32,000 bases of DNA from an uncultured Pelagibacteraceae bacterium (lineage in GTDB: Bacteria; Pseudomonadota; Alphaproteobacteria; Pelagibacterales; Pelagibacteraceae). The position numbers were made by a program, and so were the translations under genes. Below, piece by piece: positions 2,668-13,228 of this stretch (positions are counted from its first letter, which is position 1; each line of letters opens with the position of its first letter). Below the pieces are notes generated by a model, which had not been told where the DNA came from, did no database searches, and saw only the letters and a list, made by a program, of their open reading frames with translations. The DNA lies in assembly GCA_902541285.1 (NCBI GenBank), contig CACBQD010000006.1:1-32000 (forward strand). Direction: 5' to 3'.

Positions 2668-4431
2668 TTATTTAGATTTTCTATTTTTTTTTATAATTGA
2701 TGAATTCCAGATATAGTCATGATAGCGATCTATTGACCATGGGAGAATAATTGGTCTAAAATTTACACTAAATTTATTATATTCTTGATAATTTATTCTT
2801 TTCGCAGTCATTAGAGAATAAATTTCATTTTTTAACACATCAGCTTTAGACGCAACAACTAAATTTGATAAAAAACCTTTACTGGCATATAAGCTATTTT
2901 TTGAATTTAGAAAATCGGAATAAACTATACTCTCAGGGGTTTTGTTACGATTTGAAAAAACTTTTTCACCAAAATTCAAGTTTAAATTTGAAAAAATAAT
3001 TATTCCAAAAAATAAAATAAAAAAATTAAATTTATTATAATTATATTTGTTAAATGATTTGATAAGAAGGTATGTGAATAAAGCTGGTAGCACATATAAT
3101 ATATGAGCAACTTGTGAAGTGGTTTTATTGCCAAACATATTTTCATTTCTTAAAAAAATTATAATTAAAAGCGAGAAAATTAAAAAATAAGAAAAAATAT
3201 TATTTTTTTTAAAATTTTTCGTAATTAAATAAAAAGGAATTACAAAAAAATAAATAAAAACAATTAGTATTTTATATAAATCATAATTGATTTTGAGAAA
3301 ATTTATTTTGTAAGCTTCTAAAATATTTTTTAGGTTGGTTTCATTTTTCTCGAAATTTAAAATATATTGACTAGAGTTTGTAATATTTTCTATATTTTGA
3401 GTTATAAAACCTGAAGGTATCCAACCTACTATTAATAAAGATTGAAAATATTCACTTAAGTTAAAAGGATTAAAAAAGGCTATTTTTGAATTAGCAACAG
3501 GTGATTGGACTAATACCCATGTTAATAAATTTAGAAAAACTAAAAAAGATAAAATATAAAATAAAAAATCTTTTCTTATAAACTTATATTTGAAAAAATA
3601 GTAAATTGGGAAAATAAGAAAAATAAAAATTATACCTGGTTTTGTCACAGTAAGTATTAATGCCAAATATGAATTAAATTTAATATTTGGCTCATCGTCA
3701 TTATCAAAATTAAATAAAAAAATAAAAAAAATAATTAAAGAAAAAATGCCAGAAAATGATAACGAATATGAAAAAAAATTTTCAAATACAAACAATAAAA
3801 TTACAAATAATATAAATATTAATATATATTTTATTTTACTCATATTTTTATTAGCCTGGTAAAAGAAAAAACAAATTGCTGTAAGAATACTACATATTAA
3901 AAGGTATCTTGCTTCTAATAGAGAGATTAAATTTAAATCCGAAATTAAAATTGAAGATGCGGTAAGTACAGATGTTGGAAAAAGAGGATGCGCTGTTAAT
4001 CTTGATGGAAAATAAGTAAAATTTTTTATGTTACCTATATAATCAGAATAATAAAGTTCAATTGATGGACTCCAGTATACTACATCATGAGATTCATAAA
4101 CTAAGTTTTTAAAATGAAATTGATGTAATAATAATAGAAAAAAAACATTTATAATTAAAAAAATTATAATTTTTGTTTTATTTTTAATGATGTCTTGTAA
4201 AAAAAAAATGTATTTTTTTTTATAAATAAAAATAAATAAATTTAAAATTAACACTGCGTAAGTGATAAAATATACATAGCCAGGTAAAATTCGAAATAAA
4301 AAAGAGATAGATAATGCAATTGTAAATAAGGCTGTTAAGTATCCAATTACAGTTCTGTTGGTTAAATTATATCCAAAAAATAAAATTAAAAGTTGTGTAA
4401 AGAAATATTGTAAGTAAACATAATTATGCAT
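2668..4431 (-). CDS. Large polytopic integral membrane protein, family unknown (candidate GT-C-type glycosyltransferase or glycan polymerase)
   Basis: 587-aa ORF dominated by many hydrophobic F/I/L-rich segments separated by short polar loops. There is an acidic/aromatic loop (ESHDVVYWSPSIELYYSDY) after the first helices. I recognise no soluble-domain motifs. Confidence 0.55.
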   Translation of the reverse strand: MHNYVYLQYFFTQLLILFFGYNLTNRTVIGYLTALFTIALSISFLFRILPGYVYFITYAVLILNLFIFIYKKKYIFFLQDIIKNKTKIIIFLIINVFFLLLLHQFHFKNLVYESHDVVYWSPSIELYYSDYIGNIKNFTYFPSRLTAHPLFPTSVLTASSILISDLNLISLLEARYLLICSILTAICFFFYQANKNMSKIKYILIFILFVILLFVFENFFSYSLSFSGIFSLIIFFIFLFNFDNDDEPNIKFNSYLALILTVTKPGIIFIFLIFPIYYFFKYKFIRKDFLFYILSFLVFLNLLTWVLVQSPVANSKIAFFNPFNLSEYFQSLLIVGWIPSGFITQNIENITNSSQYILNFEKNETNLKNILEAYKINFLKINYDLYKILIVFIYFFVIPFYLITKNFKKNNIFSYFLIFSLLIIIFLRNENMFGNKTTSQVAHILYVLPALFTYLLIKSFNKYNYNKFNFFILFFGIIIFSNLNLNFGEKVFSNRNKTPESIVYSDFLNSKNSLYASKGFLSNLVVASKADVLKNEIYSLMTAKRINYQEYNKFSVNFRPIILPWSIDRYHDYIWNSSIIKKNRKSK

Positions 4432-4444
4432 AAATTAAGATCTA

Positions 4445-5494
4445 ATGTTGTTAAATACAAAATTTTGGAAAAACAAAAAAGTTTTAATTACTGGCTGTAC
4501 TGGTTTCAGCGGATCATGGCTGATAATTTTTTTAAATATTTTGAGGTCTAGAGTTATTGGATACTCTCTTTCACCACCTTCTAAACCCAATCTTTTTAAT
4601 GTGCTAGGCTTAAAAAATAATATTCGTTTACATAATGGAGACATTAATAATTACAATAACTTAAAAAAAATAATCTATAAAGAAAAACCTGATATTATTT
4701 TTCATTTAGCGGCAAATGCTATTGTATTAGATTGTCATCGAAACCCGATTAAAACTTATAAAACAAATTCATTTGGAGTTTTGAATCTTTTAGAAATATT
4801 AAGACATTACAAAAAAAAAATTACAGTTAATATAATTACATCAGATAAATGCTACACAAATAAACAAAAAAAAAATGCATTATTTAATGAAGAAAGTTCA
4901 TTAGGTGGAGATGATGTTTACAGTGCATCAAAGGCTGTTGCTGAAATAATGGTTAATTCTTATCAAAAATACTTTTCTAATAATATTAAAATTTCAACAA
5001 TACGTAGTGGTAATATAATTGGAGGTGGTGATTGGGGAAAATACAGATTAATCACAGATATTGTTCTTTCTAAGTATAAAAATAAAAAATTTAATATTAG
5101 AAATTTAAATGCAATTAGACCATGGCAACATGTATATGATGTCATTCATGCATATTTATTAATTGCTCAATATACTTATATGACAAATAAATTTCAAAAT
5201 TGGAATGTTGCGCCAAATAATACCAGAATTTCAGTTAAAAAAATATGTTCTTTCTTTTTAAAAAAAAAAGAGTTTAAAATTAAATCTAAATATAAAAATA
5301 ATATAGAAAAAAAATTTTTATTACTTAATAGTAAAAAAATTAGAAAAATTATTAAGTGGAAACCATCTTTCTCGTATAAAGAAATGATGTACGACATTGA
5401 AAAATGGTACCATCTTTATTATAATTCAAAAAACATAAAGCAGCATAGTTATGATACTGCCAAATTATTTTTGAAAAGTATAAAGCTTAAATGA
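4445..5494 (+). CDS. rfbG: CDP-glucose 4,6-dehydratase
   Basis: 349 aa. The N-terminus FWKNKKVLITGCTGFSGSWL is typical of RfbG/DdhB. It has the SDR catalytic YSASK and a PWQHV block. Its stop overlaps the next start (ATGA). Confidence 0.8.
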   Translation: MLLNTKFWKNKKVLITGCTGFSGSWLIIFLNILRSRVIGYSLSPPSKPNLFNVLGLKNNIRLHNGDINNYNNLKKIIYKEKPDIIFHLAANAIVLDCHRNPIKTYKTNSFGVLNLLEILRHYKKKITVNIITSDKCYTNKQKKNALFNEESSLGGDDVYSASKAVAEIMVNSYQKYFSNNIKISTIRSGNIIGGGDWGKYRLITDIVLSKYKNKKFNIRNLNAIRPWQHVYDVIHAYLLIAQYTYMTNKFQNWNVAPNNTRISVKKICSFFLKKKEFKIKSKYKNNIEKKFLLLNSKKIRKIIKWKPSFSYKEMMYDIEKWYHLYYNSKNIKQHSYDTAKLFLKSIKLK

Positions 5495-6237
5495 ATCAAA
5501 ATAATTATAATCAAAATAAAGAATTATTTTTTAAAAAAGGTTACTTTGTAGTTAGAAGTGTAATTAAAAAAAGTACAATTAAAAAATTATTGGTAGAGAT
5601 TTATAAAGCAAAAAATACTGATAAATATACTGACACCAGGGGCAACCTTAGAAGAATTGAAAGACTTTACAACAAAGGTAAAACTTTAAGTGATTTAAAT
5701 CATAAAATCTTATTAATATTAAAAAGAGTTTTTGCAGAAAAATTTGTAATTTTCAAAGATAAATTTAATGCAAAGCCACCAGGTGGTGATGGATTTTATG
5801 CTCATTTTGACGGAGTATTTAAATTTACTAACCAAAAAAATGAAAAAAAAAACGGATGGTATGAGTATACTGATTTTTTTGTAAATTGTTTAATTGCACT
5901 CGATAAATGCAACAAGCGTAATGGATCTATTGAACTTTCAAATTTTCATAAAGGTAGTTTTGAAGATTTATTTAAAAAAACAAAAATGGATGGAACTCCA
6001 GCTTTAAGTGAAAAGACTTTAAAAAAGACAAAGTTTAATCTTATTAATTTAAATGAGGGAGATATGGTTTTTTTTTCAAATAAATGTCCTCATCAGTCCA
6101 AAAAAAATAATACAAATCATAGCAGAAGAATTCTTTACTACACCTATACAAAACTAAAAGACAAATCAAAATATTCACAATATTATAAAGATAAAATAAG
6201 AAGTAAAAATAAACTTAAAGCTTTAGAAGAGAAATAG
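5491..6237 (+). CDS. Phytanoyl-CoA dioxygenase (PhyH)-family Fe(II)/2-oxoglutarate-dependent dioxygenase
   Basis: 248 aa. It has an HxD iron motif (YAHFDG), a distal His (KCPHQS) and a downstream Arg pair (HSRRILYYTY), as in PhyH-type 2OG oxygenases. It shows ATGA coupling to rfbG. Confidence 0.65.
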   Translation: MNQNNYNQNKELFFKKGYFVVRSVIKKSTIKKLLVEIYKAKNTDKYTDTRGNLRRIERLYNKGKTLSDLNHKILLILKRVFAEKFVIFKDKFNAKPPGGDGFYAHFDGVFKFTNQKNEKKNGWYEYTDFFVNCLIALDKCNKRNGSIELSNFHKGSFEDLFKKTKMDGTPALSEKTLKKTKFNLINLNEGDMVFFSNKCPHQSKKNNTNHSRRILYYTYTKLKDKSKYSQYYKDKIRSKNKLKALEEK

Positions 6238-6323
6238 TTTTAAATTTAATTAAAATTTACTTTATTACTGTCAAAAATTTATTATTTTGTATTTATCCAA
6301 TAAATAAATTAAAAACTTAGATA
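6238..6323 (+). promoter_or_regulatory. Possible internal promoter ahead of the pepM-ppd-adh unit
   Basis: An 86-bp gap sits inside an otherwise overlapping or abutting co-directional block. It is the only sizeable spacer upstream of pepM. Confidence 0.25.
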
Positions 6324-7625
6324 ATGAAAAAAAAAACTGTATATGTTGGTTTAGCTGCTGATATTCTCCATAAAGGACATATTAATATTCTTAAAACTGC
6401 CAATAGATATGGAAATGTTATTGTTGGACTTTTGACAGATCAGGCAATTGCAAGTTACAAAAATATTCCTTACTTAAATTATGAAAAAAGGAAAGTTGTA
6501 ATAGAAAATATTAGATATGTAAAAAAAGTAATACCTCAGGATACATTAGATTACATATATAATTTAAAATTAATAAAACCTGATTATGTGGTTCACGGAG
6601 ATGATTGGAAAACAGGTGTTCAAAAAAAAACAAGAGAAAGAGTAATAAAAACATTAAAAAAATGGTCTGGCAAACTAATAGAACCAAAATATACAAAAAA
6701 TATATCATCTACTTTAATCAAGAAAGAAATGAACAATTTAATTTATTCACCAGAAAATAGAGTTTCAAGATTAAAAAGATTGATTAATTCAAAAGAAATT
6801 GTAAGAATTTTAGAGTCTCATAATTCTCTTACCGGATTAATTATTGATAAAATTAATGTTGAAAAAAATAAAAAGGTTGTTGAATTTGATGGAATGTGGT
6901 CATCAAGTTTGACTGACTCTGCAACTAAAGGTCTTCCTGATAATTCCTCACTATCATTTTCTGCTCGGATTGCATCTTTAAACGATATGATGGATGTAAC
7001 AGCTAAACCACTAGTTTTTGACGCAGATAATGGTGGCCAGATAGAACATTTACCATTTTTAGTTAGATCTTTAGAGAGATCAGGGGCATCTGCAATTATT
7101 ATGGAGGATAAAGTAGGTCTTAAAAAAAATTCACTATTCAAAGATCAATCTGGGGCTAAACAAGATAAACCACAACTTTTTGCAAAAAAAATTAAAAAAA
7201 TTTGTAACTCAAGACAGTCACAAGATTTTATGGTTATAGCTAGAATTGAAAGTTTTATAGTGGGTAAAAGTCTAAAAGATGCTTTACACAGGGCAGAAAT
7301 TTACTCAAAAGCTGGAGCAGATGCTATTTTAATACACAGTAAGGAAAAAACACCTGCTCAAATTTTTTCATTTGCTAAAGAATTTAAAAAAAGTAAGAAT
7401 TTTAAACCTTTAGTTTCTGTTCCATCTACATATTCAAAAGTTTATGAAAAAGATTTAATAAAAAATGGCTTTAAATTAGTTATCTATGCCAATCAATTAT
7501 TAAGAGCTGCTTATCCCGCTATGCAAAATACAGCACGAACCATATTAAAAAATAAAAGAGCTTTCGAAGCTGATAAAAAAATTATTTCAATTAAAGAAAT
7601 AATTAATTTAGTTAAAAATGATTAA
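6324..7625 (+). CDS. pepM: Bifunctional HxGH-type cytidylyltransferase / phosphoenolpyruvate phosphomutase
   Basis: 433 aa. Residues 1 to about 135 carry VYVGLAADILHKGHINIL, RYVKKVI and VVHGDDW, as in TagD/ECT/CCT-class cytidylyltransferases. Residues from about 150 to 433 carry ESHNSLTGL, FDGMWSSSLTDSATKGLPD, DADNGGQ and EDKVGLKKNS. The last is an exact EDKX5NS PEP-mutase discriminator. Confidence 0.85.
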   Translation: MKKKTVYVGLAADILHKGHINILKTANRYGNVIVGLLTDQAIASYKNIPYLNYEKRKVVIENIRYVKKVIPQDTLDYIYNLKLIKPDYVVHGDDWKTGVQKKTRERVIKTLKKWSGKLIEPKYTKNISSTLIKKEMNNLIYSPENRVSRLKRLINSKEIVRILESHNSLTGLIIDKINVEKNKKVVEFDGMWSSSLTDSATKGLPDNSSLSFSARIASLNDMMDVTAKPLVFDADNGGQIEHLPFLVRSLERSGASAIIMEDKVGLKKNSLFKDQSGAKQDKPQLFAKKIKKICNSRQSQDFMVIARIESFIVGKSLKDALHRAEIYSKAGADAILIHSKEKTPAQIFSFAKEFKKSKNFKPLVSVPSTYSKVYEKDLIKNGFKLVIYANQLLRAAYPAMQNTARTILKNKRAFEADKKIISIKEIINLVKND

Positions 7626-8718
7626 AGTTACTACTTTAATTAATTTATTAAAAAAAAATGGTATAGATTTTTATACTGGAGTCCCAGACAGTATTTTAAA
7701 GGAACTTTCTTTTTCACTGCAAAGTAAAAATAAAAAAAAACATATTATTGCAACAAATGAAGGCTCAGCCGTCTCAATTGGTATTGGCCATTATCTATCT
7801 ACAAAAAAATTACCTGCTATTTACATGCAAAATTCTGGTTTATCTAATGCTTTAAACCCATTAATCTCAATAGCTCATAAAAAAGTATATTCCATTCCAT
7901 TAATTTTAATAATTGGATGGAGAGGCTCTCCACGAATTAAAGATGAACCTCAACATAATGTAAAAGGTAAAATTACTAAACAAATTTTAAAACTACTTAA
8001 TATAAAATATACCGTTTTACGATCAACTTCTGATTTAAATAAATTTCACAAACAAATTAAAGTAGCGAAAAAAGATAAATCCATAGTAGCTTGCTTAATA
8101 GAGCAGGGCACTCTTGAAAAAAATAAAAAAATTAAAGCAAAAAAGAATTTTTATAATTTAGACAAAGAGTTTTTTTTAAAAAATTTATTAAAGAATATAA
8201 AAAATCAAACAAAGATTATTTCTAGTACAGGATATAATTCAAGAGAATTAATGTATATAAAGGATAAATATAAATTCAAAAATAGTAAAGATTTTTATAT
8301 GGTTGGTGGCATGGGGCATACTTCTTCTGTAGCTCTTGGATATTCTCTGTTCAACAAAAAAAAAATTATTTGTATAGATGGTGACGGATCACTTATAATG
8401 CATTTAGGTTCAATAAAAACAGCAGGAACTTTTGCAAATAAAAATTTTAAATATATTTTGTTAAATAATAATACTCATGATTCTGTGGGTGGCCAAAGCA
8501 CTTACACAAATAATATTGATTTTGAAAAACTTTCGAAAAGTTTAGGATTTAAAAAATTTCATTCTATAAAAAGTAAAAAAAATTTAAATCAAAATATTAA
8601 AAAATTTCTGTACGAAAAAAATTTAGGTTTTTTAGAGGTACAAGTCTCTAAAAGTAAAATAAAAAAACTTCCTAGACCAACAGATTTGATTAAAATAAAA
8701 AATGAATTTATGAGTTAA
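7618..8718 (+). CDS. ppd: Phosphonopyruvate decarboxylase (ThDP-dependent)
   Basis: 366 aa. The N-terminus (GIDFYTGVPDS) is typical of Ppd/sulfopyruvate-decarboxylase-like enzymes. The ThDP motif is GDG-X25-NN (GDGSLIMH...ILLNNNTHDSVGGQ). An 8-nt overlap (ATGATTAA) links it to pepM. Confidence 0.8.
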   Translation: MIKVTTLINLLKKNGIDFYTGVPDSILKELSFSLQSKNKKKHIIATNEGSAVSIGIGHYLSTKKLPAIYMQNSGLSNALNPLISIAHKKVYSIPLILIIGWRGSPRIKDEPQHNVKGKITKQILKLLNIKYTVLRSTSDLNKFHKQIKVAKKDKSIVACLIEQGTLEKNKKIKAKKNFYNLDKEFFLKNLLKNIKNQTKIISSTGYNSRELMYIKDKYKFKNSKDFYMVGGMGHTSSVALGYSLFNKKKIICIDGDGSLIMHLGSIKTAGTFANKNFKYILLNNNTHDSVGGQSTYTNNIDFEKLSKSLGFKKFHSIKSKKNLNQNIKKFLYEKNLGFLEVQVSKSKIKKLPRPTDLIKIKNEFMS

Positions 8719-9822
8719 ATGATCAATTCTATTGAGGATATAAAAAAATTCATTAACGACAAAAAACATAAAAAAATATTTGTTTTGTGTGGAAAAAAAT
8801 CTTATGAAACCTCTGGTGCAAAAGAACTTTTTAAAGCAATGCTTTCTGAGAAAGAAATTAATATTTTTTACAAAAAATCCGAATTACCTATTCTTAAAGA
8901 ACTGATAGAAATTATTATAAATGTAAAAAATTTTAAACCAGATTTAATTTTAGCAGTTGGTGGTGGGGCGATTATTGATTATGCTAAAATAGCAAATGTC
9001 GTCGATGTAAGACCTGATCTTGCAGAACTAATAAAAAATTATGTATATCCATTTAAAAAAAAATATACAAAACTAGCAGTAATCCCAACTACTGCAGGAT
9101 CTGGAGCTGAGGTTACTTCAAATGCAGTAATTTATGTAGATGGAATTAAACATTCTTTTGAAAGTGAGTTATTAATACCAGATAATTTTTTTTTAATCCC
9201 AGAATTTTTAATTTCTGCACCAAAAAAAATTAAAGCATCAGCCGGGTTTGATGCTATCGCACAAGCTTTAGAATCATTGATTTCAAAAAAATCAAATTCT
9301 AAAAGTGTCGAATATGCAACAAAATCCTTAGAAATCTCAACGAAGAGTTTTATATCATTTTTAGACAATCCAAATAAAATAAACGCTACTGAAATGAGTA
9401 TAGCATCTAATTTGGCAGGAAAGGCGATTAGCATATCTAAAACAACTGCTCCACATGCAACATCATATCCATTTACATCTTTATTTCAAATTAGCCACGG
9501 TCATGCAGTAAGTCTTTTTTTTGAAAATTTTTTTAAATTTAATTTTGATAATTTAGAAAGATCAGAAACAAAATTTGACTTAAAAAAAAGGTTTGATTTA
9601 ATTTTCAGAATTTTTGAAGTAAAAAATATTGAAAATTTTACATCAAAAATTTCATCAATAAAAAAAAAAGCAAATCTTGAAGATAATTTGCTCAATTTAA
9701 ATATTAATTTAAAAAATAATTCTGAAGAAATAATAAAAGGCATAAATTTATTAAGATTAGGAAATAATCCAATAAAAATAGATGGAAAAGATATCTATGA
9801 CATAATTAAAAAAAATAATTAG
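8719..9822 (+). CDS. Group III iron-containing alcohol dehydrogenase, probable phosphonoacetaldehyde reductase (forms 2-hydroxyethylphosphonate)
   Basis: 367 aa. It has GGGAIIDYAK (the GGGSxxD nucleotide motif), PTTAGSGAEVT and His-rich metal motifs (APHATSYPF, SHGHAVS). It starts on the base after the ppd stop. Confidence 0.7.
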   Translation: MINSIEDIKKFINDKKHKKIFVLCGKKSYETSGAKELFKAMLSEKEINIFYKKSELPILKELIEIIINVKNFKPDLILAVGGGAIIDYAKIANVVDVRPDLAELIKNYVYPFKKKYTKLAVIPTTAGSGAEVTSNAVIYVDGIKHSFESELLIPDNFFLIPEFLISAPKKIKASAGFDAIAQALESLISKKSNSKSVEYATKSLEISTKSFISFLDNPNKINATEMSIASNLAGKAISISKTTAPHATSYPFTSLFQISHGHAVSLFFENFFKFNFDNLERSETKFDLKKRFDLIFRIFEVKNIENFTSKISSIKKKANLEDNLLNLNINLKNNSEEIIKGINLLRLGNNPIKIDGKDIYDIIKKNN

Positions 9823-9892
9823 GAGATGTCTGTAAATTTGAAATATATAAGTATAATATCTTTTAATTATTAAAAAATAAATTTTGAAATAT

Positions 9893-10672
9893 ATGAAATG
9901 TGTAATATTAGCAGGTGGACTCGGTACTAGATTATTTGAAGAGACACAAACTAAGCCTAAAGCTTTAGTAGAAGTAGGTGGCAAAACATTAATAGAGCAC
10001 ATCATAGATCAATTTTCTAAACATGGAATTAATGATTTTATTGTATGTCTCGGTTATAAGGGAAATCTTATAAAAAAATATTTTGTTGATTATTATAACA
10101 ATAATTTAGATTTTTCGATAGATTTTTCAAAAAACAAATTTTTTTTTGAAAAAAAGTTTAACAGAAAATGGAAAATAACTTTTGTAAATACAGGTCTAGA
10201 TACAGGAACCGCAGGCAGAATTAAGCTAATAAAAAATTATTTGAAAAATGAAAAATCTTTTTTTCTTACATATAGTGATGGGGTATCAAATATAAACTTA
10301 AAAAAACTCCTTAAATCCCACATTAAAAGTAAAAAAAAAGTTACAATGTGTGTGACCAGACCAAAAAATAGATATGGAATTGCTAACATAAAAAAAAACA
10401 TTCTTGTATCATTTAATGAAAAAAAAAGAGTCGATAAAAATAATAACTGGATAAATGCTGGTTTCTTCGTGTTAAATACAAATGTAATTAGTCAATTAAG
10501 TAGTGTTAAGGAATATTTTGAGGCCGAGCCACTCTCTCAACTTATAAAAAAAAATAACGTATCTATTTATAGACACAATGACTTTTGGAGATCTATTGAT
10601 ACTTTAAAAGATAAAACTGAGTTGGAAAAAATATGGAAAAAATATAAAACTTGGGATTTAAAGGGAATATAA
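9893..10672 (+). CDS. rfbF: Glucose-1-phosphate cytidylyltransferase
   Basis: MKCVILAGGLGTRLFEETQTKPKALVEVGGKTLIEHI...DFIVCLGYKG is nearly collinear with Salmonella RfbF/DdhA. I prefer the ATG at 9893 to the TTG at 9884 given in the ORF track. Confidence 0.8.
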   Translation: MKCVILAGGLGTRLFEETQTKPKALVEVGGKTLIEHIIDQFSKHGINDFIVCLGYKGNLIKKYFVDYYNNNLDFSIDFSKNKFFFEKKFNRKWKITFVNTGLDTGTAGRIKLIKNYLKNEKSFFLTYSDGVSNINLKKLLKSHIKSKKKVTMCVTRPKNRYGIANIKKNILVSFNEKKRVDKNNNWINAGFFVLNTNVISQLSSVKEYFEAEPLSQLIKKNNVSIYRHNDFWRSIDTLKDKTELEKIWKKYKTWDLKGI

Positions 10673-10677
10673 CTTTT

Positions 10678-11319
10678 TTATGACCTAAGATATGTATAAA
10701 TTAGTAAAATAAAATAATAGAGCAGAGTATAGACGCTCATCAACAGAAGATACTCCTTGTGAAGGTTTAAAATTATAAAGCATGATCCCCAAAATAACAT
10801 ATTTGTTCTTGTAAATATAAAATATTCAATTAATTTAAAAAAAGTACTCTTTCTTAAATTGTTTTGATCAAATTTAGGTAAAAAAACTATCATAGAAAAA
10901 TAAATATTATCTATACAAAATCTAAAACTAATAAAAATAAGTCCACAAATTAAAAAATAAATATTATTCTCGAATATATAATTTGAGGATATAATTGCTA
11001 AAATAAAAAAATTATCTGCAAGCCTATCTAATGTACAATCCAAATGAGCACCAAACGAAGACTGCAATTTTTTTTTAATTGCTAGATCTCCATCAGCACA
11101 ATCAAAAATAAGAGATAAATTTATTAAAATAAAACTAATTAAATTAAAATAATTATTTCCTTTAAAAATAATAAATGGCAGAGAAACAACTATTAAAAAA
11201 AATGATAAATAAGAAAGGTTATTTGGAGTTATTTTAGTATTTATTATTTTATTAACAATATATCTTGAAAAAATTCTATAAATTTTTTCTATACCTATAT
11301 CAGACCTTACCGCACTCAT
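10678..11319 (-). CDS. CDP-alcohol phosphatidyltransferase-family integral membrane transferase
   Basis: 213 aa with several hydrophobic helices. DCADGDLAIKKKLQSSFGAHLDCTLDRLAD fits D-x2-DG-x2-A(R)-x8-G-x3-D-x3-D, with Ile in place of the usual Arg. Confidence 0.75.
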   Translation of the reverse strand: MSAVRSDIGIEKIYRIFSRYIVNKIINTKITPNNLSYLSFFLIVVSLPFIIFKGNNYFNLISFILINLSLIFDCADGDLAIKKKLQSSFGAHLDCTLDRLADNFFILAIISSNYIFENNIYFLICGLIFISFRFCIDNIYFSMIVFLPKFDQNNLRKSTFFKLIEYFIFTRTNMLFWGSCFIILNLHKEYLLLMSVYTLLYYFILLIYTYLRS

Positions 11320-11339
11320 ATTTTTAATTTTTAAAAAAA

Positions 11340-12275
11340 TTATTCAATACTTTTTATAATTATTGTTTTATCAAATTTTTTTAATTGATTATAAATTTTT
11401 CCAACGTATTCTCCAATAATACCAATAAAAATACTGTTTAAAGCAAGTATTATCAGCATCAGAAAAACTAAAGTTGTAAAGCCTTGAGGACTACTAGCAG
11501 GGTCAAAAATTTTTTGAATAAAATAATAAATTAATCCTACTACAGAAAAAAAGGAAATCATTAATCCAAACAATGTAGCCATTCTTAGCGGGGCTATAGT
11601 ATGATTTGTAATATTTTTAAATGATTCCATTATATATTTAAAAAAATTAAATTTAGTCTTTCCAGCTTTTCTTTCCTCTCTTACATGCTCTATTCCATAA
11701 TTCTTAAAACCTAAAGAGTAAATAAATCCCCTTAAATAAGTGTCACGTTCATCCATAGATTTAATTATTTTGATAATTTTTTCATCAATTAACGAGAAAT
11801 CTCCAACATCATTTTTTAACTCAGAATGACTTAAAAAATTAATAGTTCTATAGAAAGCTTTTCTTAAATTTTTTATTATAAAATTTTCTTTTCTATTTTT
11901 TCTAATTCCATAAACATAATCATACCCTTCTTCCCATTTTTTTATGAATTCTTCAATCAATTCTGGAGGATCTTGTAAGTCGCAGTCTAATTGAATAGCT
12001 GCTGATCCGTTTGCTAATTTATATGCGTTTATTAATGATCTTTCTTTTCCTATATTATTTGAGAATGAAAAACATTTTACATTTTTATCAGTCAAGTTTA
12101 TTTTTTTTATAATTTCAAAACTATTATCTGAACTGTTATTATCTGTGAATATAATTTCATACTTATAAACTTTACTATATTTAACAAAAATATTTTTTAT
12201 TTTTTCATAAATTGATTTAATATTTTCTTCTTCGTTTAAGATAGGTATACAAATACTAATTATTTTTTTTTCCAT
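11340..12275 (-). CDS. GT2 polyprenyl-phosphate glycosyltransferase (ArnC/GtrB/DPM-synthase-like) with C-terminal membrane helices
   Basis: 311 aa. Motifs are ISICIPILNEEENI, IIFTDNNSSDNS, QLDCDLQDPPE, GIRKNRKE and VGDFSLID. Two C-terminal TM segments end in IGIIGEYVGKIY, which is typical of this subfamily. Confidence 0.8.
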   Translation of the reverse strand: MEKKIISICIPILNEEENIKSIYEKIKNIFVKYSKVYKYEIIFTDNNSSDNSFEIIKKINLTDKNVKCFSFSNNIGKERSLINAYKLANGSAAIQLDCDLQDPPELIEEFIKKWEEGYDYVYGIRKNRKENFIIKNLRKAFYRTINFLSHSELKNDVGDFSLIDEKIIKIIKSMDERDTYLRGFIYSLGFKNYGIEHVREERKAGKTKFNFFKYIMESFKNITNHTIAPLRMATLFGLMISFFSVVGLIYYFIQKIFDPASSPQGFTTLVFLMLIILALNSIFIGIIGEYVGKIYNQLKKFDKTIIIKSIE

Positions 12276-12319
12276 CTGGACAATATATAATTTTTTTAGA
12301 AGATATAAAAAGTAATTAA

Positions 12320-13228
12320 TTATTTTTTTCTAATCAAATATTCTATGTAAAAAAACACTCCCATTATAGCTGATGGAATACCTCTGCTTATAAAGAATAT
12401 TGAAATCAATATAATTTCCTCAGGAGACAATAATTTGCTAAAAATTAATAGGATAAAAAACTCTCTAAAACCAATACCATTATAAGTTATGGGTATAAAT
12501 CCAATTAGTGATATTAAGCTTACAAATGAAATGATTTTAAAAAATGAAAAATTATCAACTTCTAAAAATTTAACAAAAATATAGAAGTGAACAAAAGTTA
12601 AGAAAATAAATATTATATTTATAAATAAAATAACATGAAAATTTTTATTATTTTTTGTATATTTTAAAAATATTTTTCCCAATTTATATAATATGTTAAC
12701 TTTTATTAAGTTAAATAAATACTGAATATTTTTTAAAATTAAAAAATAGACCAAAACAAATAATATTGTTAAAAGTATGTAGGTTAACTTAATCTCATTT
12801 AAATAAAAAATAATGAAAATAGATAAAAAAACATAAACAGTTATCTCAAAAAACTTATCGACAATCATTATTTCTAAATTTTTTAAATAATTGATTTTAA
12901 AAAATTTCTTTAATAAATAAATTTTTTTTACTTCCCCTAATTTAAAAGGTAATATAAAATTTAAAAAACTTGAGATAAAAAATATTTTTAAAAGTTTTTG
13001 TTCTTTAATTTTTTTTCCTAAGAGTAAGGTAAATTTTTTAACATTTAGTAGTGTTTGGACTATACAAATTATATATGATGAAAAAAAAATATTATTATTT
13101 AGATTTATTAATAAAAGTTGAAATTTATCAAAATCAACTTTTTTAAGAAAAAAAAAAATTAAAATTAAGCTTATAATAAAAATAAAAAACGAAAAAAGAT
13201 TTTTTAGCGATTTAAAATAATAAAACAT
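12320..13228 (-). CDS. Polytopic membrane protein, possibly a flippase-like (LPG-synthase-TM/UPF0104-type) partner of the adjacent GT2
   Basis: 302 aa and almost entirely hydrophobic helices. The assignment rests only on size, topology and position directly downstream of the ArnC-like gene. Confidence 0.4.
   Translation of the reverse strand: MFYYFKSLKNLFSFFIFIISLILIFFFLKKVDFDKFQLLLINLNNNIFFSSYIICIVQTLLNVKKFTLLLGKKIKEQKLLKIFFISSFLNFILPFKLGEVKKIYLLKKFFKINYLKNLEIMIVDKFFEITVYVFLSIFIIFYLNEIKLTYILLTILFVLVYFLILKNIQYLFNLIKVNILYKLGKIFLKYTKNNKNFHVILFINIIFIFLTFVHFYIFVKFLEVDNFSFFKIISFVSLISLIGFIPITYNGIGFREFFILLIFSKLLSPEEIILISIFFISRGIPSAIMGVFFYIEYLIRKK

Follow-up and report, generated by a model that had tools for sequence, protein, structure and literature searches.

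A marine PhyH-type dioxygenase encoded at the head of phosphonate biosynthesis genes is a candidate phosphonate alpha-hydroxylase

Phosphonate alpha-hydroxylases are known from both biosynthetic and catabolic systems. DhpA (dehydrophos) and FzmG (fosfazinomycin) are Fe/2OG enzymes of this kind from Streptomyces, where they act in biosynthesis downstream of PepM, phosphonopyruvate decarboxylase (Ppd) and an Fe-dependent alcohol dehydrogenase (Fe-ADH). DhpA converts 2-hydroxyethylphosphonate (HEP) to 1,2-dihydroxyethylphosphonate in vitro, and FzmG, which is 45% identical to DhpA, does likewise (PMC4303578). FzmG has been described as a PhnY* homologue, alpha-carbon hydroxylation being the usual reaction of the group (PMC8942020). 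PhnY and PhnY* themselves are paired with PhnZ, for 2-AEP and methylphosphonate, respectively. Finally, the “Burkholderiales_CDP-OH” clusters of Li & Horsman (2022) have been proposed to yield a hydroxylated phosphonate headgroup on lipid (PMC8942020).

The DNA analysed here (the window) is a 32,000-nucleotide stretch of an uncultured Pelagibacteraceae contig (CACBQD010000006.1). It carries a gene (5491..6237, + strand; ATG start, 248 aa), hereafter PhyH, for a predicted phosphonate alpha-hydroxylase. The kind of enzyme is known; what is new is the marine PhyH subfamily to which it belongs, which is abundant and uncharacterised.

The PhyH reading frame is a real gene and no chance ORF, as is evident from its Pfam score, its homologues, its invariant columns and a confident structural model. 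The protein matches Pfam PhyH (PF05721) with 46.9 bits (cutoff 22), residues 15-213 aligning to profile positions 3-212 of 213. A search of 5.8 billion proteins returned 290 homologues at E<=1e-3. Among 28 family members (54-84% identity), 70 alignment columns are invariant, including H105, D107, H201, R212 and R213, and the first three of these residues are also invariant in all 103 aligned relatives. The AF2 model (pLDDT 89.6, pTM 0.89) has a PhyH-type fold. Its best Foldseek matches are proline hydroxylase H11, GriE, AndA, SnoN, PHYH (2a1x) and EctD (probability 1.0, TM 0.6-0.68), structural neighbours whose reactions span hydroxylation, halogenation, epimerisation and carbocyclisation. By sequence, PDB searches gave a lone spurious match (0.14) with the single sequence and weak generic matches to PhyH, EctD and CurA with a profile. 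The PDB and Foldseek matches include no structure of a phosphonate hydroxylase.

The first-pass annotation had described a 248-aa frame with an HxD motif, a distal His and a basic pair, and all are present as quoted: GFYAHFDG (H105-x-D107), KCPHQS (H201) and HSRRILYY (R212/R213). H105, D107 and H201 are the predicted Fe ligands and R212 the predicted 2OG-binding residue. R212 lies at H201+11, is invariant in the family alignment and presumably binds the C5 carboxylate of 2OG, by analogy with H264/R275 of human PHYH. The family profile, the HxD...H triad, the basic residue and the modelled fold all point to a PhyH-type Fe(II)/2OG dioxygenase. The protein also has conserved basic residues at R54, R55, K89, K91, K95 and K235, and a 13-residue insertion after HxD (approximately residues 109-121).

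PhyH lies between a sugar nucleotide gene and a phosphonate core. Upstream is rfbG, encoding CDP-glucose 4,6-dehydratase (4445..5494, +; TIGR02622, 331.8 bits, cutoff 278), whose closing TGA (5492-5494) overlaps the PhyH start (5491-5493) as ATGA. Downstream, an 86-nt spacer (6238..6323, +) precedes a Fom1-like cytidylyltransferase-PEP mutase fusion, CT-PepM (6324..7625, +; PF01467 and TIGR02320). The overlap at 5491-5494, the gap to pepM and the nature of both neighbours had been read correctly from the letters, and both neighbours are now identified by profile match. The PepM domain scores 357.6 bits on TIGR02320 (cutoff 319.6) and contains the EDKxxxxxNS motif as “EDKVGLKKNS”. The CT domain (residues 1-134 of the fusion) matches the Fom1 CyTase structure 5x3d with 173 bits (E 1e-49); close CT-PepM homologues carry the JGI name [quoted passage not shown]. 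The PF01467 domain of Fom1 makes CMP-HEP (PMC6697681), and the match thus implies a CMP-HEP intermediate. Ppd (7618..8718, +; TIGR03297, 372.8 bits, cutoff 312.5) and an Fe-ADH (8719..9822, +) follow. The latter is placed in the phosphonoacetaldehyde reductase position by family and location, and scores below every equivalog cutoff.

Beyond the core lie a glucose-1-phosphate cytidylyltransferase-like gene, rfbF (9884..10672, +), and three genes on the opposite strand: a CDP-alcohol phosphatidyltransferase family protein (10678..11319, -), a GT2 polyprenyl-phosphate glycosyltransferase of PgfS/ArnC type (11340..12275, -) and an LPG_synthase_TM-family membrane protein (12320..13228, -). The GT2 and LPG_synthase_TM genes are both kept with the CDP-alcohol phosphatidyltransferase in loci of the window type, and the phosphatidyltransferase is a candidate for moving the CMP-activated phosphonate to a lipid or alcohol acceptor. 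Around the phosphonate core, rfbF and rfbG are gained and lost together.

PhyH may be transcribed separately from the core. Apart from the PhyH/CT-PepM spacer, all core junctions overlap or abut, so the spacer may hold an internal promoter. Both the spacer and a promoter-like motif between PhyH and pepM are conserved, which suggests that PhyH need not share a transcript with the core. A consensus promoter scan of 4300-6500 found 11 sites in this DNA of 22% GC, with 16.9 expected from shuffled sequence. Rfam has no match in the spacer or elsewhere in the window.

Across homologous loci, PhyH is associated with pepM and not with rfbG. A genome contig search with one sequence as query found no relative, and the homologue loci were retrieved by an alignment-based scan. 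The 97 non-redundant loci that resulted belong to SAR11, Gammaproteobacteria, SAR86 and Marinimicrobia. In 21 of them the contig extends 5 kb or more in each direction, and 18 of these 21 have PepM no farther than 6 kb away; of the 69 loci whose contig continues for 1.5 kb or more downstream, 63 have the PepM/Ppd/Fe-ADH core. Counting truncated contigs, PepM is found in 72/97 loci, whereas rfbG adjoins PhyH in only 4-5/97. The usual place of PhyH is directly upstream of CT-PepM, while its upstream flank varies between an APS-kinase-like gene, ManC, rfbG, FkbM and a membrane protein. L024-L026, which are syntenic with the window, have PhyH-PepM-Ppd-FeADH but neither rfbG nor rfbF; at L120, PhyH adjoins a decayed 38-aa rfbG remnant; and some homologues directly precede pepM where no CDP-glucose genes lie close by. 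Thus, rfbG is a variable neighbour and not a conserved partner. Co-occurrence with pepM as against rfbG was the check set by the first-pass annotation, and its outcome supports the placement of PhyH in the phosphonate pathway, not in the CDP-sugar branch.

The remaining context is more variable. Three well-flanked loci have no pepM within 10 kb (L013, L117 and the viral L118), of which the last two retain LicD and cytidylyltransferase genes. The transferases that accompany PhyH differ by locus (CDP-OH phosphatidyltransferase, TagF-like or LicD), and a B12-radical-SAM gene occurs in gammaproteobacterial loci only. A phage collection searched for the PhyH protein gave no match; in IMG/VR, one contig encodes a relative of 35% identity. 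Some SAR11 loci adjoin phosphonate or phosphate ABC transporter genes. Unannotated ORFs with no Pfam or NCBIfam match are present in L003 (435 aa and 373 aa) and L011 (365 aa), the 435-aa ORF being restricted to that one locus; none of them is recognisable as MpnS or HepD.

By sequence, the nearest recognisable relatives of PhyH are PhnY-type phosphonate alpha-hydroxylases. The best NCBIfam match is the PhnY* methylphosphonate hydroxylase model NF052437 (68.8 bits, E 5e-19; next model 19 bits). This score is far under the equivalog cutoff of 500, and the protein is thus no equivalog; on the same model, relatives that are PhnZ-coupled or biosynthetic reach 105-261 bits. A Dietzia PhyH encoded directly upstream of a Phn-HD oxygenase gene aligns by BLASTP at 26% identity (E 2e-23), and HHalign against the clade that contains it gives 99.9% probability (E 1.4e-36, 210 columns). 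Although PhyH is only about 25% identical to PhnY-type proteins, it shares an extended signature with them: R55, E57, K89, K91, N93, K95, S203, N206, Y216, T218, Y231 and K235. Remoter relatives are fused to phosphonate enzymes (TPP-domain::PhyH, aminotransferase::PhyH and HD::PhyH) or adjoin them (PntC-PhyH-LicD and Ppd-AT-PhyH::AEPT). In a neighbour-joining tree the window clade separates from the others; its branches are long, and the tree is informative for that separation only. A tblastn search of 114 PhyH loci with the Dietzia Phn-HD protein found no PhnZ-type gene, and no HD domain is present among the annotated neighbours. This lack of a PhnZ partner at any locus points to a biosynthetic role.

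PhyH is an optional tailoring step, as otherwise identical SAR11 cassettes occur with and without the gene. L121 corresponds to L002/L029 minus PhyH, and L119 (Pelagibacter sp. RS40) to L005/L006 minus PhyH; L124 likewise has no PhyH, and all three are negative by tblastn. Among SAR11 HEP cassettes sampled without bias, PhyH heads roughly half (2/5 contexts). The first-pass annotation had given PhyH the fixed slot that MpnS or HepD occupies in other HEP pathways; its absence from isogenic cassettes makes it an accessory enzyme instead.

On balance, the sequence and its setting make it somewhat probable that PhyH is an active Fe(II)/2OG oxygenase that hydroxylates C1 of HEP or CMP-HEP, giving a 1,2-dihydroxyethylphosphonate headgroup. 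PepM would convert PEP to phosphonopyruvate, Ppd would form phosphonoacetaldehyde and Fe-ADH would reduce this to HEP, which the Fom1-like CT domain fused to PepM would activate to CMP-HEP. The ferryl intermediate of PhyH would then hydroxylate the phosphorus-bonded carbon of HEP or CMP-HEP, the chemistry of DhpA and FzmG. Transferases of the CDP-alcohol, LicD or TagF type would place the hydroxylated headgroup on a lipid or glycan. Cells would carry unmodified HEP where PhyH is absent and the hydroxylated form where it is present. In this scheme, what the enzyme acts on, which carbon it hydroxylates, whether this comes before or after cytidylylation and which acceptor receives the headgroup are all inferences.

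The substrate might nevertheless be broader or lie earlier in the pathway. PhyH could alpha-hydroxylate phosphonoacetaldehyde, with reduction or transamination afterwards, or could be indifferent to C2 and take both HEP and AEP. Two loci (L097/L099; 51% identity) adjoin PepM, Ppd and an AEP transaminase (TIGR03301, 366 bits, above cutoff) with no Fe-ADH, yet their PhyH proteins are identical to HEP-context members at all clade-specific positions, leaving no specificity determinant among these. Since every such residue is kept, AEP or a shared intermediate may be accepted, and PhyH may not be HEP-specific. FzmG also takes phosphonoacetaldehyde besides HEP, but the reaction is an oxidation to phosphonoacetate, not an alpha-hydroxylation (PMC4303578). 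Furthermore, pairing with Fe-ADH is seen in more than 60 non-redundant loci and pairing with the transaminase in one subgroup only. We thus regard this broader or earlier activity as unlikely. The phosphonate linkage and the PhnY-type kinship support the tailoring role originally suggested for PhyH, though specificity for HEP may not be strict.

PhyH could also act after transfer, on HEP that is already in ester linkage with a lipid or glycan, or on the acceptor itself. Optionality is common among late decorating enzymes, and PhyH shares it; the transferases around it also vary, and the family-specific insertion near the metal site could fit a larger substrate. Nonetheless, PhyH stays directly upstream of CT-PepM while the transferase and acceptor genes change, and this fixed position argues that its substrate comes from the invariant core. 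Action after transfer is accordingly improbable.

A different oxidation of HEP is given a similarly low probability. PhyH could work towards (hydroxy)phosphonoacetate as FzmG does, desaturate its substrate, or cleave a C-C bond in place of MpnS or HepD, neither of which is recognised in any of the loci. FzmG performs two different oxidations (PMC4303578), and the outcomes among PhyH-type structural neighbours are varied. Against this, the characterised relatives named in the literature all hydroxylate the alpha-carbon (PMC8942020, PMC4303578). An essential, product-defining step would also not be expected to be optional. To our knowledge, C-C cleavage of HEP occurs only in cupin enzymes that do not use 2OG. 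It is very unlikely that PhyH is a 2OG-dependent C-C cleaver, unrelated to MpnS and HepD, that turns HEP or CMP-HEP into methylphosphonate or hydroxymethylphosphonate; if it were, abundant SAR11 and gammaproteobacterial lineages would hold an unrecognised methane-precursor route. A milder proposal is that PhyH would make CMP-1,2-dihydroxyethylphosphonate as a mimic of CDP-glycerol for TagF, LicD or CDP-OH transferases. Such a mimic would imply phosphatase-resistant surface polymers and make dihydroxyethylphosphonate a major overlooked marine phosphonate.

A PhnY-like role in catabolism or salvage, priming phosphonate for oxidative C-P cleavage, has a very slim chance of being correct. Among curated models the catabolic PhnY* is the closest, some members bear the JGI automatic name “2-aminoethylphosphonate dioxygenase”, and the transporter genes beside some SAR11 loci would fit. 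We reject this role because PhnZ is missing (0/114 loci for a PhnZ-type HD oxygenase); in addition, the gene is nearly always within a biosynthetic PepM/Ppd/Fe-ADH cassette, and its clade, in which an insertion absent from the PhnZ-coupled enzymes is present, lies apart from theirs.

Least probable of all, and rejected, is modification of the CDP-4-keto-6-deoxyhexose branch, which the first-pass annotation had kept as an alternative on the strength of the rfbG coupling: the start-stop overlap recurs in L001, L027/L028 and L122, L013 has sugar genes within 5 kb and no pepM, and TIGR04324 (“sporadic carbohydrate cluster 2OG-Fe(II) oxygenase”) matches weakly (19.4 bits, under its cutoff of 150), but PhyH co-occurs with pepM and only rarely with rfbG, persists where rfbG and rfbF are gone or rfbG is a remnant, and precedes pepM where CDP-glucose genes are absent.

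PhyH most likely hydroxylates the cell-surface phosphonate of abundant marine bacteria, and this would change a main organic phosphorus compound of the ocean. The family occurs widely in marine metagenomes, Tara and JGI samples being represented throughout the 290 homologues, and two surveys of marine phosphonates make no mention of it. Should C1 hydroxylation prove true, 1,2-dihydroxyethylphosphonate would account for part of the presumed cell-surface and DOM HEP; it would give no ethylene via C-P lyase and, as an alpha-hydroxyphosphonate, could be a direct substrate for cleavage by PhnZ-type oxygenases. With PhyH present in some strains and absent from others, their surfaces would also vary more from strain to strain, which fits the anti-grazing and anti-phage role proposed for these phosphonates. 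Moreover, the JGI automatic name could lead surveys that rely on annotation to list a biosynthetic gene under phosphonate catabolism.

Compared with known systems, the window family most resembles PhnY and PhnY* in sequence, with the same fold, metal and 2OG ligands and extended signature. It differs in its biosynthetic context without PhnZ, its separate clade and the extra 13 residues after HxD; it also has D48 where PhnY-type relatives have E and Y228 where they have R. In context it is like DhpA and FzmG, being encoded with the HEP-forming trio, a likeness drawn through literature descriptions and not sequences; the best curated match of the window protein is also PhnY*, of which FzmG is a homologue. 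Unlike DhpA and FzmG, the family occurs in marine Proteobacteria and Marinimicrobia, in cell-surface (lipid/glycan) clusters with a CT-PepM fusion and not in antibiotic clusters. It is also optional, and the window has no downstream genes of the DhpB-D type. MpnS and HepD act on HEP that marine microbes likewise make with PepM, Ppd and Fe-ADH, but these cupin enzymes are of an unrelated family, use no 2OG and cleave the C1-C2 bond. The PhyH fold and the 2OG-binding Arg rule out membership of that group, and the window protein is, in addition, dispensable in otherwise identical cassettes.

The three genes after PhyH reproduce the Fom1-Fom2-FomC module of early fosfomycin biosynthesis. That pathway continues with methylation by Fom3 and epoxidation by HppE and has no PhyH-type enzyme, whereas the window combines the module with a PhyH oxygenase and membrane transferases. 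The “Burkholderiales_CDP-OH” clusters, whose oxygenase is likewise putative and uncharacterised, have an AEP transaminase, a predicted 1-hydroxy-AEP product and mostly a PF12804 PntC-type fusion (PMC8942020); the window has Fe-ADH, for HEP, and a PF01467 fusion of the Fom1 type. Nevertheless, these clusters share with the window a cytidylyltransferase-Ppm fusion, Ppd, an Fe/2OG oxygenase and a CDP-alcohol phosphatidyltransferase-type gene.

The PhyH gene (5491..6237, + strand) is an ATG-initiated ORF of 248 aa that, judged by its residues, profile match, and predicted fold, is a real and catalytically intact Fe/2OG oxygenase. Its start overlaps the TGA closing the ORF at 4445..5494 (ATGA at 5491-5494), and an 86-nt spacer separates it from the next ORF (start 6324). 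The protein carries the motifs GFYAHFDG (H105-x-D107), KCPHQS (H201), and HSRRILYY (R212, R213). The ORF, its overlap with rfbG, the 86-bp gap to pepM, and the HxD, distal His, and basic pair were all found as the first-pass annotation had described them. The Pfam PhyH match scores 46.9 bits (cutoff 22). A search of 5.8 billion proteins returned 290 homologues, nearly all of 245-250 aa and from marine metagenomes. Among 28 aligned sequences (54-84% identity), 70 columns are invariant, including H105, D107, H201, R212, and R213. The AlphaFold2 model (pLDDT 89.6, pTM 0.89) has as its Foldseek neighbours proline hydroxylase H11, GriE, AndA, SnoN, human PHYH, and EctD (probability 1.0, TM 0.6-0.68); no close sequence relative was found among solved structures.

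The neighbouring genes agree with the first-pass annotation. Upstream lies rfbG, a CDP-glucose 4,6-dehydratase gene (4445-5494; TIGR02622, 331.8 bits, cutoff 278). Downstream, from 6324, is CT-PepM, a PF01467 cytidylyltransferase fused to a PEP mutase (TIGR02320, 357.6 bits, cutoff 319.6; motif EDKVGLKKNS), followed by the phosphonopyruvate decarboxylase Ppd (TIGR03297, 372.8 bits, cutoff 312.5), an Fe-dependent alcohol dehydrogenase (Fe-ADH), and rfbF, a glucose-1-phosphate cytidylyltransferase-like gene (9884-10672). Beyond rfbF, the opposite strand encodes a CDP-alcohol phosphatidyltransferase, a GT2, and an LPG_synthase_TM protein. The other genes of the window form an island devoted to glycan and lipid biosynthesis. 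The window's GC content is ~22%, and among genomes it matches Pelagibacteraceae (SAR11) records best.

We find that the PhyH gene tracks the phosphonate core and not rfbG. Homologue loci were collected from genomes, metagenomes, one viral contig, and exact-protein look-ups, giving 114 loci that collapse into 97 non-redundant groups. PepM, Ppd, or Fe-ADH lies within 6 kb in 18 of the 21 loci with at least 5 kb on both sides, PepM itself being present in all 18, and in 63 of the 69 loci with at least 1.5 kb downstream. Loci without a nearby core are mostly contigs that end beside the PhyH gene. Most often, PhyH is followed after 40-110 nt by CT-PepM, Ppd, and Fe-ADH, an order seen repeatedly in SAR11, SAR86, and several Gammaproteobacteria; on a Marinimicrobia contig, Ppd is directly upstream of PhyH. 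The upstream gene varies: across the 97 groups it is an APS-kinase-like gene in 30, ManC in 20, an FkbM methyltransferase in 5, and rfbG in only 4-5. This co-occurrence check, which the first-pass annotation had called for, gives PepM in 18 of 21 well-flanked loci against rfbG in 4-5 of 97 groups and favors the phosphonate association that the first-pass annotation had put forward.

That annotation had also kept open a role in the CDP-4-keto-6-deoxyhexose branch, and two natural controls are decisive against it. In three loci (L024-L026; 71% identity in PhyH), synteny with the window extends to both flanks, with LuxE-LuxC-FabA-ZnADH and a membrane protein upstream and a CDP-OH transferase, GT2, and LPG_synthase_TM downstream, yet rfbG and rfbF are both missing. 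Locus L120 retains PhyH beside a 38-aa rfbG remnant (6061-6174), with rfbF present. Thus, the ATGA overlap is a local packing accident in a streamlined genome. The two sugar genes bracket the PhyH-PepM-Ppd-FeADH block, which can gain or lose them; the window, L001, L027, and L122 have the pair.

Some PhyH genes occur away from PepM. Two loci nested inside the PhyH family in the tree have no pepM within 10 kb: L013, whose neighbours are FkbM and sugar genes, and L117, with LicD and a cytidylyltransferase. On the viral contig L118 (IMG/VR UViG_3300013111_000325, 117 kb), a PhyH at 35% identity lies in a gene group at 9977-12505; behind it come a PF01467 cytidylyltransferase that is not fused to PepM, a short Fe-ADH-like gene, and LicD, and neither PepM nor Ppd occurs within 10 kb. 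The group may be a phage-encoded headgroup-tailoring module.

PhyH is optional within SAR11 cassettes. When loci were sampled via close CT-PepM homologues rather than via PhyH, the gene was present in two of five contexts (L120 and L122/L123) and absent from three. Locus L121 reads ValRS-IlvD-ManC-CT-PepM-Ppd-FeADH with a 36-nt ManC-to-PepM spacer, the arrangement of L002 and L029 minus PhyH. In the complete genome of Pelagibacter sp. RS40 (L119, CP020778.1), an APS-kinase-like gene directly precedes CT-PepM, as in L005 and L006 minus PhyH. L124 and L125 also lack PhyH, and all absences were tblastn-negative. This pattern fits a product-diversifying tailoring enzyme, not an obligatory step, and the proposed analogy to the cluster slot of MpnS or HepD needs correcting, since otherwise matching cassettes (L121, L119) do without the gene. 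Cultured strains with and without it appear to exist: RS40 lacks the gene, whereas the records named Pelagibacter sp. HIMB1427 (L001, 67% identical to the window copy) and HIMB1420 (L006) carry it.

The cassettes differ in their accessory genes. One of these, absent from the window, encodes a P-loop kinase resembling APS kinase (NF004041; score 142 bits, above cutoff); it directly adjoins PhyH in 30 of 97 non-redundant loci and often overlaps its start (L005 9436-9966; L006; L010 1705-2241; L011 12164-12694; L037 9469-10011); the L119 copy is at 7413-7934. The kinase could phosphorylate a nucleotide-activated phosphonate or a headgroup hydroxyl, following a DhpB-like logic, or make PAPS for sulfation. 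Gammaproteobacterial cassettes (L007, L008, L009, e.g., L009 14332-19263; L016, L080, L089, L094) carry further genes. One encodes a B12-binding radical SAM protein whose top match, the Sden_1168/PhpK P-methyltransferase family, scores 224 bits and stays below cutoff; the others encode a TagF-like CDP-glycerol-type phosphotransferase and a TupB-like oxyanion ABC transporter plus its PBP. These genes could provide C- or P-methylated phosphonates and teichoic-acid-like polymerisation. Some SAR11 cassettes (L029 14331-20744; L003) adjoin two diacylglycerol kinase genes, a PlcP-like metallophosphoesterase, a GT4, a histidine kinase, and pstS/pstC. Such phosphate-stress and lipid-remodelling genes hint that phosphonate headgroups are linked to P-limitation lipid biology.

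In many SAR11 loci, the 60-66 nt non-coding spacer before pepM contains a conserved motif, ATATTAATGGAWCTRTT-N9-10-ATATATAAG (e.g., L003 10721-10786; L002 10715-10777), while the remaining cassette junctions overlap. The motif resembles a regulator site or a promoter internal to the cassette. It is absent from the window's 86-nt spacer (6238-6323), which is of a different type, and the window has no Rfam match.

Upstream of the phosphonate core, the window encodes a LuxC acyl-CoA reductase, a FabZ-like dehydratase, and a Zn-ADH (13-2663, + strand), an arrangement whose synteny is kept in window-type loci. The upstream regions of related loci (L024-L028) add LuxE, an AMP-binding enzyme, a split transketolase, an SDR, and a GMC oxidoreductase. 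The CDP-alcohol phosphatidyltransferase may receive from the LuxC-type genes an acceptor of the fatty aldehyde or alcohol type; this would point to a phosphonolipid.

The relatives of the PhyH protein point to phosphonate chemistry. Its sole substantial NCBIfam match is the methylphosphonate hydroxylase PhnY* (68.8 bits, E 5e-19; second model 19 bits), a score that falls far short of the PhnY* cutoff (500). The closest annotated plasmid relatives (23-30% identity) lie in phosphonate contexts in every case: a Dietzia PhyH (261 bits on the PhnY* model) directly precedes a Phn-HD oxygenase as a PhnY/PhnZ-type pair, a Rhizobium PhyH sits between a PntC-like cytidylyltransferase and LicD, and an Azospirillum PhyH is fused to AEP transaminase with Ppd adjoining. 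Profile-profile comparison aligns the window family with the PhnZ-coupled clade over 210 columns (99.9% probability, E 1.4e-36), with a common signature beyond the metal ligands (R55, E57, K89, K91, N93, K95, S203, N206, Y216, T218, Y231, K235). However, the window family has a 13-residue insertion directly after HxD, absent from the PhnZ-coupled clade, and two switched residues, D48 where others have E and Y228 where others have R. It forms a separate clade in a quick neighbour-joining tree with long branches, and no PhnZ-type gene occurs in the 114 PhyH loci. By these comparisons, the protein belongs to the phosphonate hydroxylase group as a divergent member found in biosynthetic contexts; it is not a PhnY* equivalog.

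The 1,353 relatives from an exhaustive profile search include multi-domain TPP-domain::PhyH, aminotransferase::PhyH, and HD::PhyH proteins. Fusions among distant relatives (proteins P0174, P0229, and P0267; L022 7809-9548) join PhyH to a Ppd-like TPP enzyme, an aminotransferase, a PhnZ-like HD domain, or AEP transaminase, and provide Rosetta-stone-type links of the clade to phosphonate metabolism. JGI auto-names for family members are '2-aminoethylphosphonate dioxygenase' (P0011, P0025, P0049, P0085, and others) or 'ectoine hydroxylase-related'. The former denotes catabolic PhnY, and annotation-based metagenome surveys could score such members as phosphonate degradation. Within a few kb of the cassette, L120 (1-1051, - strand, 419 aa) and L121 (13205-14086, - strand, 293 aa) have other PhyH-domain genes, with no kinship to the window protein detectable by tblastn (E<=1e-3). 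Thus, SAR11 islands hold several unrelated PhyH-type oxygenases.

A subgroup of two loci offers a natural contrast case for substrate specificity. In L097 and L099, PhyH (51% identity) is divergently oriented beside CT-PepM-Ppd and a true AEP aminotransferase (TIGR03301, 366 bits, above cutoff), and Fe-ADH is absent (L099: PhyH 8768-9505 +, CT-PepM 7273-8586 -, Ppd 6135-7271 -, aminotransferase 5018-6121 -). Beside this AEP-type core, PhyH retains every clade-specific residue and the active-site signature, so the enzyme may tolerate AEP or act on a shared intermediate.

The three genes after PhyH in the window reproduce the Fom1-Fom2-FomC module. The window CT domain matches PDB 5x3d, a 160-residue chain named PEP phosphomutase, which we take to be the Fom1 cytidylyltransferase domain, over all 134 residues (173 bits, E 1e-49). 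JGI names close CT-PepM homologues 'PEP phosphomutase / 2-hydroxyethylphosphonate cytidylyltransferase'. According to Cho et al. 2017, as cited in PMC6697681, the PF01467 domain of Fom1 converts HEP and CTP to CMP-HEP. The module, structural match, and naming indicate that the cassette should make HEP and CMP-HEP. Cassette transferases vary by locus (CDP-alcohol phosphatidyltransferase, TagF-like, or LicD), and all three families use CDP- or CMP-activated donors. In the best model, whose substrate, regiochemistry, and step order we infer, PhyH would hydroxylate C1 of HEP or CMP-HEP, and the hydroxylated headgroup would then be transferred to lipid or glycan. PepM linkage and PhnY-type kinship both favor this phosphonate-tailoring role, which the first-pass annotation had proposed.

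We found no published mention of the gene, including in two marine phosphonate surveys and a branch-point inventory. Fe/2OG phosphonate alpha-hydroxylases are an established kind of enzyme, and the conversion of HEP to 1,2-DHEP predicted here is known chemistry. The novelty lies in the subfamily, which is marine, abundant, and uncharacterised, and whose gene heads the SAR11 HEP cassette as an optional member. The mechanism is unsurprising, but the gene matters directly for the question of which phosphonate is displayed and released by the most abundant heterotrophs in the ocean.

Precedents for the predicted reaction are DhpA, which converts HEP to 1,2-dihydroxyethylphosphonate, and FzmG, which is 45% identical to DhpA, performs the same hydroxylation, and does not accept 2-AEP (PMC4303578). 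FzmG is described as a PhnY* homologue, from a group that usually hydroxylates the phosphonate alpha-carbon (PMC8942020); the likeness of both enzymes to the PhyH protein is drawn from literature statements. The Burkholderiales 'CDP-OH' architecture combines a cytidylyltransferase-Ppm fusion, Ppd, AEP transaminase, an alpha-KG oxygenase, and phospholipid-type transferases (PMC8942020), and the window resembles a HEP version of it.
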